Below, in pieces: positions 6,672-11,721 of a stretch of 64,000 bases of DNA. Under the pieces are notes generated by a model, which saw only the letters and a program-made list of their open reading frames with translations, had not been told where the DNA came from and did not search any database. The stretch's first letter is position 1. Each line of letters starts with the position of its first letter. This DNA is from Actinomycetota bacterium (GTDB taxonomy: Bacteria; Actinomycetota; UBA4738; HRBIN12), in the NCBI GenBank assembly GCA_040902745.1, contig JBBDWR010000029.1:8791-72790 (forward strand). The letters are read 5' to 3'. The position numbers and the translations under genes are program-made.

Positions 6672-7184
6672 CTAGTCCTCGTCGTCCGGAACCGAGAGGG
6701 CTCGCCGGGCCGCCTCCCGCGCCGTGTCGGGGGTGTACCCCCTACGCATCAAGGCGTCGACGATGCGCTTATGCGCTTTGGGGGGAGCGACCCCGCTCAT
6801 CCGACGGACGCGACCCTCGGCGAACTCCAGCGCCCGCTCGAACTCGCCATCGGTGGATCCGGCGACGACGCGGTCGATCGTGGCCCGATCGACACCCTTG
6901 GCGTACAGGCCGCTCGCGATCGCCCGCCCGCCCTTTCGACCGTTGACGGCCTGCTCGGCGAACGCCTCGGCGAACGCGTCGTCGTCGATGAGGTTCACCG
7001 CCTCGAGCCGCTGCAGCTCTTCGGCAACTTCACCTGCTTCGAAGCCCGCTCGAAGGAGTCGCTGTTCGAGCTCCCGCCTACTCCGCATACGAACGGCAAG
7101 GAGTCCGAGCGCGCGATCGTGTAATCCGAGTTTGCGCCCCCCTTTGGGTCCGCGCTCGGCATCGCCCTTGACTCGAGTATTCAT
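6672..7184 (-). CDS. recX: RecA regulatory protein RecX
   Basis: An internal ATG at 7184 (MNTRVKGD...) yields a ~170-aa RecX-like three-helix-repeat protein. The 19-nt gap after the recA stop fits the conserved recA-recX pair. The upstream ORF extension is Pro/Arg-rich artefact. Confidence 0.8.
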   Translation of the reverse strand: MNTRVKGDAERGPKGGRKLGLHDRALGLLAVRMRSRRELEQRLLRAGFEAGEVAEELQRLEAVNLIDDDAFAEAFAEQAVNGRKGGRAIASGLYAKGVDRATIDRVVAGSTDGEFERALEFAEGRVRRMSGVAPPKAHKRIVDALMRRGYTPDTAREAARRALSVPDDED

Positions 7185-7203: not shown

Positions 7204-9402
7204 TCAGTTGGCGGACGCGTCGGCCGGCTGCTTGGACTTGGTCTTAGGTTCCGACGGGGTCGCGTCCGGGGTCGCGTCGGGGGTCGCGGCCGGCGTGTCG
7301 GGCAGCTCGATCGGCTTATCGTCGGCTTCGTCGAAGCGATCGAGACCAACGGCCTCCCGGACCCGACGCTCGATCTCCTGCCGAACGTCTTCGTGCTCCA
7401 CGAGGAACTGACGCGCGTTCTCCCGGCCCTGACCCAGCTGTTCGCCCTCGTAGGTGAACCAGGCGCCACTCTTCTTGACGATCTCCAAGTCGACACCGAC
7501 GTCGAGCAGACTGCCTTCGGCGGAGATGCCTTTGCCGTACATGATGTCGAACTCGCACTGCCGGAAGGGCGGGGCGACCTTGTTTTTCACGACCTTGACG
7601 CGGGTGCGCGAACCGACGACCTCGGTGGCGTCCTTGAGGTTCTCGATCTTGCGCACGTCGAGGCGAACGGAGGAGTAGAACTTGAGCGCGCGCCCCCCGG
7701 GGGTTGTCTCCGGCGAGTTGTGCACGACGGTTCCATCGACGAGGTAGTTGTGCGTTCCTTCGACTTCGAGATCGAAGCGATGGGTCGCCCGCGACTTCGC
7801 ACTGCTCCCGATCTCGAGGACGGGCATCGGCATCAGGTCGTATCGCATCGGCACGAAAATCGGCTCGACGCCGAATCGCCCCCGATAGATCGGGAGGAGC
7901 TTGTACTGCATCGACGGGTGTACGAATGGAGCGATGAGCGCGTGCAACTTCGCGGTCTCATCCTTCGGGAACTGCAGTACGGCTTTTTCTGTTCTCGAGA
8001 TGAGCTTGGGCCGGATACCCCACGTGTCGGCAAGCCAATCGGTCAGTCGCTGGCGGCTCGTGGGCTCGATGGATTCGATGCAGATCTCAGAACGCCCACT
8101 GCCTTCCCGGGTGCGTTGCTGCAGGCCCTTGGCACGGAGCTGGAAGCTGCCGTCGTCCATGTACCAAACGGCCAGGGAAAGCGGTGTGAGCTGCTTGAGG
8201 TACTCCTCGCTGACAACCTTCTTGCCACCCACGTACACCGCTCGCCTGAGCTCGGCGAGCTCGGGGAGAGGCGTCATGTCGTGGAAGACAGCCCCTTTGG
8301 CGTTGGTGGACCGGCTGGAGCCGATGTTGGCGAACAAGCTCGCCTTCCAATCACCGTACTCAACCTGCCGAGCGCCGTGGCCCCATCGGAACCGGCCTGC
8401 ATGTCCACTCTTGCTCGGGGACAAAGCCCCGTCGCCGAGCAAGCCGCCGAGAAGCACTTGCCACTGGAAGTCGGAGAGCCGATGTGGGACGGCTTGGAGC
8501 ACACGGTCGCCGACGTGGAGCTCTTGTGCTTCGCGCCATCCTCCGGGAGTCCGGATCTGGTGGTTGGGGGTGCACGCGAATTGCGAGCGGCCGTTGCCGC
8601 TGGGCTTGGCGACCACGAACTTCGTGAACGATTCGGTGCGACCGTTGTCGAACCAGTTCACGACCTTCTTGGGAACGACCTCGCCCCGCTCGGCGTCGTA
8701 GGAGAGCACCTCCACGGGCATCCGTTGGTTGACGATCTTGCCGATCTTCTCTTGTGTTCCGTCGGCGAGCGTCACTCGTGTCCCATAAGTAAAGCATCCG
8801 AACATCACACCGATCTTCTCGCGCAGCTGGTTGATGAAGATCGCGGTGGTGTCGAATCGGGAAAGGGAGCCGGACAGCTTGCGCATCGCCTGAGACATCA
8901 GACGCGCCTGCAACCCGACGTGTGTGTCGCCCATCTCGCCCTCGATCTCGGCCCGTGGGACAAGTGCGGCGACCGAGTCGATCACGACGAGATCGAGCGC
9001 ACCCGAGCGAACCAGCATGTCGGCGATCTCGAGCGCTTGCTCGCCGGAGTCGGGCTGGGAGACGAGGAGCTCGTCGATGTTGACCCCGAGCTCTTGCGCG
9101 TAGGTGGGATCGAGGGCATGTTCGGCGTCGATGAACGCGGCGATGCCACCCTTCTTCTGCGCCTCGGCGATGATGTGCAGACACACGGTGGTCTTGCCCG
9201 AGCCTTCGGGACCGAAGACCTCGACCACACGGCCCTTCGGGATGCCGCCGACACCGAGTGCGATGTCGAGGGCCATCGATCCCGTCGGGATGATGGACAG
9301 GCCATCGCTCATCGAGTGCTCGCCCAGCTTCATCACCGCGCCCTTGCCGAACTGCTTCTCGATCTGCGAGAGCGTGACGTCGAGCATCTTGTCGCGATCC
9401 AT
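7204..9402 (-). CDS. recA: RecA recombinase precursor containing an intein (732-aa precursor; 372-aa spliced RecA)
   Basis: The N-extein is MDRDKMLDV...GPEGSGKTT...[12 protein letters not shown] (202 aa) and the C-extein is [20 protein letters not shown]... (170 aa). Joined, they read as a canonical RecA core (P-loop, L1/L2 loops). A 360-aa insert lies between them. Confidence 0.95.
7717..8796 (-). mobile_element. RecA intein (360 aa) with LAGLIDADG homing-endonuclease domain
   Basis: Block A is [13 protein letters not shown] (Cys1, TGC at 8794-8796), block B is TPNH, and block F/G is [22 protein letters not shown] with terminal Asn and +1 Ser. Two LAGLIDADG motifs are present ([11 protein letters not shown]; VWYMDDGSF). 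The insert interrupts the conserved KIGVMFG|SPETT RecA segment. Confidence 0.9.
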
Positions 9403-9544: not shown

Positions 9545-9559
9545 TCGAACGTATGTTCG
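9545..9559. promoter_or_regulatory. Putative LexA operator (Cheo/SOS box TCGAAC-N4-GTTCG) about 145 bp upstream of recA
   Basis: tcgaacgtatgttcg matches the Gram-positive/actinobacterial LexA consensus CGAAC-N4-GTTCG. It sits in the recA upstream intergenic region. Confidence 0.6.
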
Positions 9560-9666
9560 GGGTCAAGCATCGACCGATGGACGATTGTGCAACGCCGCCG
9601 TGGTGGGTAGCCTGCGCCGGTCCCGGCGATGCCTCGTCGCCCCCGAAGACATGAGGAGAGAGCGCG

Positions 9667-9999: not shown

Positions 10000-11721
10000 A
10001 TGGGTCGGACCTCGCGGCGGCGCGAGGCGAGGAGACCCAACGTGACACTGCCCGATACCGATCGACGATCCTTCCTACGCGCCGTGATCGTGTCGTGCCT
10101 GTTGACGGGACTGCTCGCCTCTCCTTCGGCAGCGTTCGTCCAAGGCGCCGCGGATCCCACCTGGCAGACGAACGGACGCGTGAACGCGATCGTCGAGGTC
10201 GGCAACATCGTGTATCTGGGAGGACTGTTCACCGAGATCCACGACGGACTCGGGGTCTCCCTGCCTCGGGAGCATCTCGCGGCGATCGATCTCACCACCG
10301 GCGAACCGACGCCGTGGAACCCGGGCACCGACGGCGAAGTCTCCGCGCTCGCGGCATCCGCGGACGGCACCACGATCTACGCGGGGGGGTTGTTCAAGAA
10401 CTCCGGCGGTCAGAGCGTCGTGAACCTCGCCGCGCTCGACGCCACGACCGGTCTCGGGGTTCCCGGATGGCGGCCCAAGGTCAGTTCGGCCGTCCGTGCC
10501 CTCGCGGTGTGGGGAACGCGGCTGTACCTGGGCGGCACGTTCGGCTCGATCTCGGGGACGACACGACGCGGCATCGCGGCCTTGACCGCCGCCACCGGCA
10601 AGGTGATGAAGAAGTGGTACCCGGGTGACGTCGATCGCAGCGTGCGCGCGCTCGCCGTCACGGACGAGCGGCTCCTCGTCGGAGGCACGTTTACCGCGAT
10701 CGGCGACAACCCTCGGAACTACGTCACAACCGTCACCCATGCGGGTGCGAAGGTGAAGCCGTGGGCGACGCCGCCCCTCGACCAGGTGCTCGCGCTCTCC
10801 GTACTGGACGGATTCGCCTACGTCGGTTCGCGTTCCAACGAGGTCACCAAACACGTCTTGACCACCGGGGAGCAGCTGTGGGCGGTCGGTGGAGACGGCG
10901 ACGTCCAGGCGGTGCACGCACAGGAGGGCATCGTCTACATCGGCGGGCACTTCGAGAACTTCACCGGTCAGCCGGAGAACAAGGTCGCGGCGGTCAGCAC
11001 CGAGGGGTTCCGCGTCGAGTGGGGAGCATCGGCGAACAGCGTTCACGGTGTCTTCTCGATGGCCGGAGGCACACACCTGTTCATCGGCGGGGACTTCACC
11101 CTTGTGTCTGGGCAGCCGCGCCGTGGCTTCGCCGCGTTCGCTGAGGGCGCGGTACCTCCAGACCCGGGTCAGGCGCTTCCGTTCTCCGACGATTTCACCG
11201 ACGGGTTCGTTCATTGGACGTTCGTCAAGGGTTTCGTGACCGACGAGGTGGAGTTCGGTGACGCCGCGCCGAGTGCCGGCAGCGCCTTGATCCTCGACAA
11301 AGCCTTCGCTTTCAAGGACCTCGGTTCGCCGGTGCCCGACGCCTGCGTACGCGCCGACGTTCGGGTGGCGTCGCACGACGGATCGGTGACGTTGCTCCGC
11401 CTGCGAGAACAGGATGGAAGCGGCCTCGTTCGGGTGTTCATCGACTCGACGGATCACCTGAAACTGCGGGCCGACCTGTCGGACCTGACCTACTCCTCGG
11501 TCGGCCGCACGAAGATTCCGGCCGGCTGGAGCACCCTGGAACTGTGCGGACGGACCTCCAACGGCACCGTCTCCGCGTCCTTGAACGGCACCGATCTCGG
11601 CTCGTTTCCCGCCGCTTTCGGTCTGCTCGGCATCGGCCGCCTGCAGATCGGCGACGACAACGAGAAAACCGTGACCTACAACTTCGACGACATCACCGCC
11701 GAAGTTCCTGCGACTCCCTAG
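10000..11721 (+). CDS. Secreted (Tat-type signal) seven-bladed beta-propeller repeat protein with a C-terminal lectin/LamG-like domain
   Basis: The N-terminus has a Tat motif (DRRSFLRAVIV...ASPSAAFVQG). Seven ~50-60-aa repeats follow, each ending hydrophobic-Y/L-x-GG-x-F (IVYLGGLF, TIYAGGLF, RLYLGGTF, RLLVGGTF, FAYVGSRS, IVYIGGHF, HLFIGGDF). A ~200-aa beta-rich C-terminal domain completes the protein. Confidence 0.7.
   Translation: MGRTSRRREARRPNVTLPDTDRRSFLRAVIVSCLLTGLLASPSAAFVQGAADPTWQTNGRVNAIVEVGNIVYLGGLFTEIHDGLGVSLPREHLAAIDLTTGEPTPWNPGTDGEVSALAASADGTTIYAGGLFKNSGGQSVVNLAALDATTGLGVPGWRPKVSSAVRALAVWGTRLYLGGTFGSISGTTRRGIAALTAATGKVMKKWYPGDVDRSVRALAVTDERLLVGGTFTAIGDNPRNYVTTVTHAGAKVKPWATPPLDQVLALSVLDGFAYVGSRSNEVTKHVLTTGEQLWAVGGDGDVQAVHAQEGIVYIGGHFENFTGQPENKVAAVSTEGFRVEWGASANSVHGVFSMAGGTHLFIGGDFTLVSGQPRRGFAAFAEGAVPPDPGQALPFSDDFTDGFVHWTFVKGFVTDEVEFGDAAPSAGSALILDKAFAFKDLGSPVPDACVRADVRVASHDGSVTLLRLREQDGSGLVRVFIDSTDHLKLRADLSDLTYSSVGRTKIPAGWSTLELCGRTSNGTVSASLNGTDLGSFPAAFGLLGIGRLQIGDDNEKTVTYNFDDITAEVPATP

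Follow-up and report, generated by a model that had tools for sequence, protein, structure and literature searches.

The recA gene in a 64,000-nucleotide stretch of DNA from an Actinomycetota bacterium (assembly GCA_040902745.1, contig JBBDWR010000029.1, positions 8,791 to 72,790; this whole stretch is hereafter called the window) is interrupted by an intein, and this RecA intein is real, far beyond chance. The insert is a class 1 intein, with Cys1, a TxxH motif, a terminal His-Asn pair and Ser+1, and it carries a nested monomeric LAGLIDADG endonuclease of the I-SceI family. Judging from its sequence and its relatives, we consider it highly probable that the element is an M. leprae-type intein at the loop L2 site of RecA, in which the HINT domain would serve splicing and the nested endonuclease would serve homing. 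It is a further member of a known and very widespread family, real but ordinary.

Architecture of the intein and the joined RecA

The recA precursor is encoded on the minus strand at 7204-9402, where the open reading frame (ORF) list gives one frame of 732 residues plus a stop codon for the N-extein, the intein and the C-extein. A GGGAGGA ribosome-binding site lies 5′ of the recA ATG. Pfam recognizes RecA in two stretches of the precursor (E 2e-133) in addition to RecA_C, and the NCBIfam recA model, TIGR02012, scores 533 bits. The N-extein (8797-9402, minus strand), which corresponds to RecA residues 1-202 in the alignment to RecA structures, ends with KIGVMFG, and its P-loop, GPEGSGKT, is unbroken and free of an intein (GPEGSGK↓TTVCLH; here and below, arrows mark intein junctions). 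The intein (7717-8796, minus strand; precursor residues 203-562) comprises 360 residues, from Cys1 to His359-Asn360. It starts with CFTYGTRV and ends with GTVVHN, and the translation continues with the extein residues SPETT. The C-extein (7204-7716, minus strand) consists of 170 residues plus the stop codon, and its first residue is the Ser+1 nucleophile. An earlier inspection of the letters and ORFs (the sequence-only reading) had described a 360-residue in-frame insert that starts with Cys, ends with HN↓S and splits KIGVMFG↓SPETT. The translation reproduces these features exactly and at the same places, and adds the strand, minus, which had been left unstated.

The joined exteins form a 372-residue RecA. 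Their alignment to the RecA structures from E. coli, M. smegmatis and M. tuberculosis is gap-free at the junction (E down to 3e-160). Compared with P0236, an intein-free RecA of 374 residues, they show 93% identity along their entire length (100%), and P0236 has the identical N-terminus, MDRDKMLDV, and the identical C-terminus, KQPADASAN. Removal of the in-frame insert from this conserved host protein restores a normal homologue, which characterizes an intein, and the predicted spliced product is a bona fide RecA, in agreement with the normal 372-residue protein that the sequence-only reading expected from the exteins.

These results bear on the reading that the insert is non-functional, either through misassembly into a chimera or through insertion of an endonuclease gene that turned recA into a pseudogene. 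We found no support for this in the window, although one relative shows that damaged copies or assembly errors do occur in the family: in locus L050, the C-extein stops after 10 codons (SPEVTPGGGR, then a stop), which reflects a frameshift, a pseudogene or an assembly error. The single 732-codon frame, the exact boundaries and the full set of catalytic residues argue against a non-functional insert, and the identical architecture has been assembled independently in hundreds of genomes. We therefore give this reading a negligible probability.

The insertion point lies between Gly202 and Ser203 of the spliced RecA, GVMFG↓SPETT, and matches KIGVMFG↓NPETT of the E. coli protein, within KIGVMFGNPETT. 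From the established knowledge of RecA, we take this site to be the DNA-binding loop L2, and therefore the unspliced precursor should be inactive.

The splicing domain is composed of two separated regions. The N-terminal splicing (HINT) region (8497-8796, minus strand; intein residues 1-100) contains block A and the block B motif TPNH (within 8548-8589, minus strand), with Thr76 and His79. The C-terminal splicing region (7717-7845, minus strand; intein residues 318-360) contains blocks F and G, which lie together at 7717-7785 on the minus strand, block G reading VDGTVVHN. Both NCBIfam splicing models exceed their cutoffs, intein_Nterm with 42.5 bits (cutoff 24.5) and intein_Cterm with 26.9 bits (cutoff 15.6). 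In a phmmer search of the PDB sequences, intein residues 1-109 and 334-360 match 2imz, the mini-intein of M. tuberculosis RecA, at E 2.7e-13; the window TPNH is placed on the M. tuberculosis TPDH of block B, and blocks F and G are placed on FDLEVEELHTLVAEGVVVHN. Consequently, blocks B and F, which the sequence-only reading had recognized by eye, are now aligned to the blocks of a structurally determined RecA intein. The Pfam Intein_splicing score of 29.4 bits, under the cutoff of 35.8, counts against the assignment; such a score is normal for an intein that is split by a large endonuclease.

The predicted structure agrees with this assignment. An AlphaFold model of the intein, built on a 13-sequence family alignment, has a mean predicted local distance difference test score (pLDDT) of 91 and a predicted template modelling score (pTM) of 0.85. 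With the whole chain as the query, the best Foldseek matches in the PDB are the intein-endonucleases TliVMA, PI-PfuI and PI-SceI. The splicing domain adopts the HINT fold, since the model superposes on the M. tuberculosis RecA mini-inteins with target template modelling (TM) scores of 0.62-0.88, and its comparison with 5i0a/2in0 gives 35% identity and a root-mean-square deviation (rmsd) of 1.7 Å over 104 columns. The block A nucleophile Cys1 and the TxxH of block B (Thr76, His79) characterize a class 1 intein, and the penultimate His, the terminal Asn and Ser+1 complete the expected blocks F and G.

The LAGLIDADG homing-endonuclease domain (7846-8496, minus strand; intein residues ~101-317) lies between the two splicing regions. 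The Pfam LAGLIDADG_2 profile (PF03161) is matched completely, from position 1 to 168 of 168, by precursor residues 314-486 (E 5.5e-34, 118 bits, cutoff 25). The two LAGLIDADG motifs noticed in the sequence-only reading are located at 8422-8472 and 8143-8190 on the minus strand. Motif 1, LLGGLLGD122G, contains the predicted catalytic Asp122 and the model helix 109-120 and aligns to GIGLILGD44A of I-SceI; motif 2, AVWYMDD215G, contains the predicted catalytic Asp215 and the model helix 205-215 and aligns to LTPMSLAYWFMDD145GG. Each of the two LAGLIDADG helices ends in a conserved acidic residue, and the order of the secondary-structure elements in the model agrees with the pseudo-dimeric alpha-beta-beta-alpha-beta-beta-alpha fold. 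Foldseek matches the endonuclease domain to I-SceI and I-WcaI with target TM scores of 0.69-0.70, and the matches to I-SceI, I-WcaI and I-Tsp061I have a probability of 1.00 and target TM scores of 0.65-0.70. Using phmmer, the same domain finds I-WcaI (E 1.4e-3) and I-SceI (E 8e-3). The I-SceI residues D44, D145, K122 and K223 correspond to D122, D215, K193 and K299 of the intein, and all four are invariant or nearly so in the family.

How well are the predicted catalytic residues conserved? We counted residue conservation over 247 collected family members. Cys1, Thr76, His79, Asp214, Asp342, His359 and Asn360 are kept in 247/247, Asp122 and His349 in 245/247 each, and Asp215 in 241/247, while Cys75, beside block B, is variable within the family. 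The M. leprae enzyme introduces one complication. Mutagenesis of this enzyme (Singh et al., Protein Sci 2010) reportedly found that Asp122 and Asp193 are essential, while Asp218 can be dispensed with. Aspartates occupy positions 122, 193 and 217/218 in the M. leprae-like fragment P0130, and the window residues D122 and D214/D215 are the equivalents of the M. leprae-type residues 122 and 217/218. The Asp193 position of M. leprae (LGDGKK), in contrast, falls in a gap in the window intein, at residues 190-191 (window ~8224-8229), and likewise in 156/247 members. This gap counts against the proposed homing function, and is the one departure of the window from the report on its closest characterized relative. 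Considering the family-wide conservation and the I-SceI alignment, we favour the canonical motif 2 aspartate as the putative catalytic residue.

Based on these features, we propose the following mechanism. Transcription of recA, probably driven by an SOS-regulated promoter, would be followed by translation into a 732-residue precursor that is inactive. Cys1 would undergo the N-S acyl shift with the aid of Thr76 and His79 of block B, and Ser+1 would then attack the thioester in a transesterification. Asn360 would cyclize, aided by His359 and by Asp342 and His349 of block F, and the subsequent O-N shift would yield the normal 372-residue RecA and a free ~40-kDa intein. The free intein, with Asp122 and Asp215 as the metal-binding catalytic residues, would cut an intein-free recA at the uninterrupted coding sequence for GVMFG-SPETT, and the element would spread when the break is repaired by recombination with the intein-bearing copy. 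That the intein can splice is very likely: a RecA whose loop L2 stayed unspliced would be of no use, and the family as a whole keeps every catalytic residue.

Relationship to known inteins and endonucleases

Two RecA insertion sites had been considered in the sequence-only reading, which favoured the M. leprae-type (RecA-b) site over the M. tuberculosis site. In NF007072, the NCBIfam model of the M. tuberculosis type, the intein is inserted at model position 252; the window intein follows residue 202, and the window precursor scores 530 bits versus the 1024-bit cutoff of this model. The M. tuberculosis-type site is located ~45 residues further downstream, where the window reads VVKNK↓VAPPFRQ and is empty, and the hallmarks of RecA-a membership (VVKNK↓C, Cys+1) are absent.

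We then queried the protein collection with an M. leprae RecA intein sequence. This search matched proteins named ‘intein-containing recombinase RecA’ from Mycobacterium sp. (P0126, P0131, P0137), Mycolicibacterium sp. (P0140) and Rhodococcus ruber (P0143), which have 363-364-residue inteins and the identical junction KIGVMFG↓C...VHN↓SPETT. An unnamed read-contig fragment that ends in adapter (P0130) is 99% identical to the query; it is called M. leprae-like by this match and not by a database name. The window precursor is collinear through both junctions with P0126 (64% identity overall) and with P0130 (65%). The intein alone is 57-61% identical, over 358-360 aligned residues, to the named inteins from Mycobacterium, Rhodococcus and other taxa, and the match sets of the window-intein search and the M. 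leprae-query search overlap. The window intein accordingly has what defines the M. leprae-type allele, namely GVMFG↓SPETT with Ser+1 (as in P0126, P0131, P0143 and P0130) and full-length intein homology, and the placement at the RecA-b site is upheld by the collinearity with the Mycobacterium sp. inteins and by the empty VVKNK site.

The M. leprae RecA intein (PI-MleI, ‘RecA-b’), an allele that is also known from several other mycobacteria, shares with the window intein the identical insertion point, the Cys1/Ser+1 nucleophiles and the architecture. Its Asp193 (LGDGKK), reportedly essential by mutagenesis, is the residue without a counterpart in the window intein. The M. leprae intein is not known to splice in E. 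coli. The host of the window intein is an Acidimicrobiia-like actinobacterium, while that of PI-MleI is Mycobacterium, and ~40% of the positions differ: the window intein is 57-59% identical to the Mycobacterium sp. inteins and 59% identical to the M. leprae-like P0130. The M. leprae RecA intein has 365 residues and includes an endonuclease, as compared to 360 residues in the window and 440 residues in the M. tuberculosis RecA intein (PMC8861304).

The M. tuberculosis RecA intein (PI-MtuI, ‘RecA-a’; 2imz, 2in0, 5i0a) resides in the same host protein, belongs to the same class 1 and ends with VVHN, as does the window intein. Its splicing domain is homologous to that of the window, as evidenced by the 35% identity, the rmsd of 1.7 Å and the alignment of blocks A, B, F and G. 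It differs in its site (VVKNK↓C), its Cys+1 and its length of 440 residues, and its endonuclease region gave no match to the window endonuclease in the sequence searches that we ran. The window endonuclease instead has its fold and motif pattern in common with I-SceI and I-WcaI (target TM 0.70), with conservation of D44, D145, K122 and K223, and its segments align to the I-SceI-type LTPMSLAYWFMDDG and IPQMMYKLP. In contrast to the window domain, which is nested in an intein, I-SceI and I-WcaI are free-standing enzymes in a group I intron, with ~19% identity and an unrelated target site. PI-SceI (yeast VMA1), PI-PfuI and TliVMA have the same organization of an intein with a LAGLIDADG endonuclease, but they reside in other host proteins, are 13-15% identical to the window intein and possess extra DNA-recognition regions without a counterpart in the window.

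Some relatives are already labelled ‘intein-containing recombinase RecA’ by the NCBI pipeline. The window gene should carry the same name, with the 372-residue spliced product as the mature RecA.

Distribution, selection and mobility

How widespread is this intein? A protein search with the intein alone yielded 1480 matches, of which the best 120 are all RecA fragments with 60-78% identity, mostly labelled Acidimicrobiales/Acidimicrobiia. Scanning a single representative genome for each GTDB species gave at least 600 stretches, at least 589 of which encode a relative. The best 80 of these stretches have 62-78% identity and originate mostly from Acidimicrobiia, Ilumatobacteraceae and Microthrixaceae metagenome-assembled genomes, with Nitriliruptoraceae, Egicoccus, Mycobacteriales and ‘Ca. 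Aeolococcus gillhamiae’ also represented; 79 of the 80 contain an intact intein ORF of 353-366 residues at the identical junction. The M. leprae-type RecA intein therefore extends far beyond the mycobacteria, to at least 589 species representatives, with Acidimicrobiia dominant. Two occurrences are in bins whose labelled taxa are not known to belong to Actinomycetota: an L2-site RecA intein in a Trueperaceae bin (P0171; 60% identity to the window intein) and one in ‘Ca. Aeolococcus gillhamiae’ (L039; 70% identity in the best tblastn segment). They imply either cross-phylum transfer or mis-binned contigs.

The intein-containing RecAs among the protein matches listed are all fragments of at most 639 residues, even on 0.3-1 Mb contigs, and no full-length precursor of ~700-730 residues is present among them. 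This could result from gene calling, assembly breaks or database filtering. If the intein is not taken into account, gene callers and recA phylogenies will give the gene a wrong size or break it into pieces.

The closest RecA relatives of the window lack the intein. We collected the 120 proteins closest to the joined exteins (82-93% identity), and all of them are intein-free, with lengths of 362-410 residues except for two longer calls of 541 and 568 residues, which also lack an intein; the 568-residue protein has RecX Pfam domains. The intein-bearing proteins in the protein collection are fragments and are hence under-ranked in such an extein search. A close intein-bearing relative would, however, have surfaced in the intein searches, and none did. 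Over a 315-residue core, the window extein is 97.1% identical to the intein-free P0236 and P0237, and in the neighbour-joining (NJ) extein tree of this core, the 12 nearest neighbours of the window are intein-free. Among the alleles with an intein, L003 comes closest, at 92% identity. The P0236 locus is syntenic with that of the window, in the order recA-recX-rny-miaB. The closest RecA relatives, L081/L082 (10001-11125), L083-L087, L103 and L104 (97% identity over the 315-residue core), are likewise intein-free, in syntenic recA-recX-rny loci.

The potential target sites in these relatives are intact. The rejoined intein-free site of the window consists of AAGATCGGTGTGATGTTCGGA before the junction and TCGCCGGAGACAACC after it, also written as CTGCGCGAGAAGATCGGTGTGATGTTCGGA and TCGCCGGAGACAACCCCCGGG, and the empty sites of L083-L086 differ from these rejoined flanks at 3/42 nucleotides. 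The L081 empty site is more divergent around the junction, with a Phe to Tyr change and the Ser codon AGC instead of TCG. We considered these L081 mismatches as the trace of a co-conversion tract or an immune allele, and rejected this interpretation, since the other empty alleles (L083-L086, L103) match the window flanks well and the flanks of the intein-bearing alleles vary only at synonymous positions.

The endonuclease domain is under purifying selection. In moderately diverged pairs, its ratio of nonsynonymous to synonymous substitution rates (dN/dS) is 0.07-0.20, close to that of the splicing domain (0.05-0.24) and little above that of the exteins (0-0.10). Selection therefore maintains the endonuclease domain, which is not decaying. 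The composition of the intein also differs from that of its host gene: the GC content at third codon positions (GC3) is 0.79 in the intein versus 0.86 in the exteins of the window, and is lower in the intein in 63/72 relatives, with a mean difference of -0.054. Between the window and L003, the synonymous distance (dS) is ~1.3 for the intein and 0.65 for the exteins; this twofold difference is a hint that both inteins predate the divergence of the genes that carry them.

Taken together, these sequences show the scattered distribution that is classic for a putative homing intein with a selected endonuclease. The presence/absence mosaic in the window clade is as expected of an active homing cycle, and fits a still-cycling mobile element, with present-day endonuclease activity likely.

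Several observations weigh against this picture. Intein distances rise with extein distances (r 0.59, Mantel p 0.001). The intein NJ tree regains the extein clade of the window, L003, L022 and L033, with 19% bootstrap versus 100% in the extein tree, and only 5 conflicts exist between extein and intein clades supported at ≥80%. With broadly congruent trees and correlated distances, inheritance over short distances looks mostly vertical. The dS values between the window and its intein-free close relatives are 0.63-0.88, and therefore none of these signals is recent on a population scale. Furthermore, no intein more than 78% identical to the window intein was found in the protein collection or among the species-representative stretches listed, and thus none of them qualifies as a recent donor or recipient. 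A recent horizontal transfer had also been considered, as the intein is closest to that of L001 (78%) although the two exteins share only 74% identity, and was dropped because the bootstrapped NJ trees do not uphold it. The claim in the sequence-only reading that the element is still mobile thus stands in part. The conserved catalytic residues, the purifying selection and the intein-free closest relatives with intact sites support it, while the trees provide no robust signal of recent transfer.

Is the endonuclease still driving homing? In a different reading, the intein splices, but its endonuclease no longer drives homing, and the element is a passenger that is passed on vertically, at a late stage of the homing cycle. 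The endonuclease domain would then be kept because its fold is needed for folding or splicing of the precursor, or for another role that the host tolerates. The broad congruence of the extein and intein trees in the window clade, the correlated distances and the absence of any intein above 78% identity among the searched collections speak in its favour, as does the missing counterpart of the M. leprae Asp193, which is reportedly essential. The M. leprae RecA intein enzyme is, moreover, described as an atypical and weakly specific endonuclease. On the other hand, decaying endonucleases normally gain deletions and become mini-inteins, as in L039 at the other RecA site, whereas 79/80 relatives keep a full-length domain of near-constant size. 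The dN/dS of 0.07-0.2, the near invariance of the I-SceI-equivalent Asp and Lys residues, and the patchy presence among close relatives with intact empty sites, as for an element still being gained and lost, also oppose a mere passenger. Considering both sides, we regard such a passenger as a serious possibility, yet clearly the less probable one, and retain the splicing and homing intein as our preferred interpretation.

The regulation of recA raises another alternative. A LexA/SOS-box-like palindrome, TCGAACGTATGTTCGG, is located at 9545-9560 (no strand assigned), ~145 nucleotides upstream of the recA ATG, and is a near-perfect actinobacterial SOS box. The CGAAC-N4-GTTCG element is present upstream of recA in 35/36 relatives examined and also in the intein-free relatives. 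Given the SOS box, the synthesis of the precursor, and hence of the endonuclease, is probably damage-inducible. The intein could have been co-opted as a post-translational switch, in which conditional splicing, responsive to redox, metals or temperature, gates RecA after SOS induction and is kept by host-level selection. The alignment and the established knowledge of RecA, which place the intein inside an essential RecA loop and so require the precursor to be inactive, are consistent with such a switch, together with the conserved SOS box and the strong selection on the whole intein. Conditional splicing has been reported for the M. tuberculosis RecA and archaeal RadA inteins (PMC11377839; PMC4760082). 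However, the nearest RecA relatives of the window do without the intein, contrary to a needed host function, and nothing in the sequence specifically points to a sensor; Cys75 is not conserved. We consider this switch quite improbable, and the splicing and homing intein remains favoured.

A further idea is that the L2-site RecA intein is not purely selfish in this lineage, and either forms a damage-linked conditional gate on RecA or belongs to a pool that is exchanged with phage RecA-like recombinases (L088, L089, described below). This idea is speculative, and we think it may hold with a low probability. If true, either the gate or the phage pool would account for the purifying selection that keeps the endonuclease at full length in hundreds of Actinomycetota species. 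In any case, the family provides a reasonable natural system for the study of intein homing cycles, with nothing conceptually new.

Other RecA inteins and the chromosomal context

Related recA genes contain as many as two inteins, and three different insertion sites are used among them. In three Acidimicrobiia/Ilumatobacteraceae loci, L027 (3001-4596), L038 and L042, a second recA intein of ~435 residues occupies the M. tuberculosis-type site, VVKNK↓C...N↓C(S/A)(A/P)PF. This second intein starts with CVAAGTRVFDPTTGLTHRIEDIV and ends with VVAN, VISN or VVSN, lacking the penultimate His. L039 (‘Ca. Aeolococcus gillhamiae’) has a ~240-residue mini-intein at the M. tuberculosis-type RecA site, from which the endonuclease is deleted. 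The third site is the P-loop, where L062 and L065 (Nitriliruptoraceae) and L067 have a ~443-residue intein, GPESSGK↓CLVAGTYVW...GVLSHN↓TTVALH, besides their L2-site intein.

The viral matches include two divergent phage-type RecA-like recombinases, L088 (2900-3979; IMGVR_UViG_3300003324_000881) and L089 (3001-4107; IMGVR_UViG_3300032245_001746, 320 kb). Their inteins, of 360 and 369 residues, are homologous to the window intein with 37-38% identity, and reside at the site IGVMFG↓C...IVHN↓SPET. This suggests that phage recombinase genes may draw on the L2-site RecA intein pool. Related inteins in unrelated proteins are present in the viral matches L090, L091 and L093.

In the window itself, a phmmer comparison of three RecA intein types with all six-frame ORFs found no other inteins, and neither tRNA genes nor Rfam matches were detected there. 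The recX gene (6672-7184, minus strand) is the ORF directly downstream of recA, and the syntenic RecX proteins of L081-L087 have RecX_HTH Pfam domains. It is followed by rny and miaB, and the rest of the window is core chromosome, with cinA, ftsK, the RNase J and PNPase genes, infB, nusA, proS, dxr and cdsA. The recA-recX-rny region is a core chromosomal locus of an Acidimicrobiia-like actinobacterium.

Between recA and cinA, a 573-residue ORF on the plus strand (10000-11721) has only a weak match to the beta-propeller DUF5122 repeat. In L081/L082, the gene just upstream of recA, on the opposite strand, encodes 561 residues and has no recorded Pfam match. L083-L087 lack this gene, and recA is there preceded directly by cinA-ligT.

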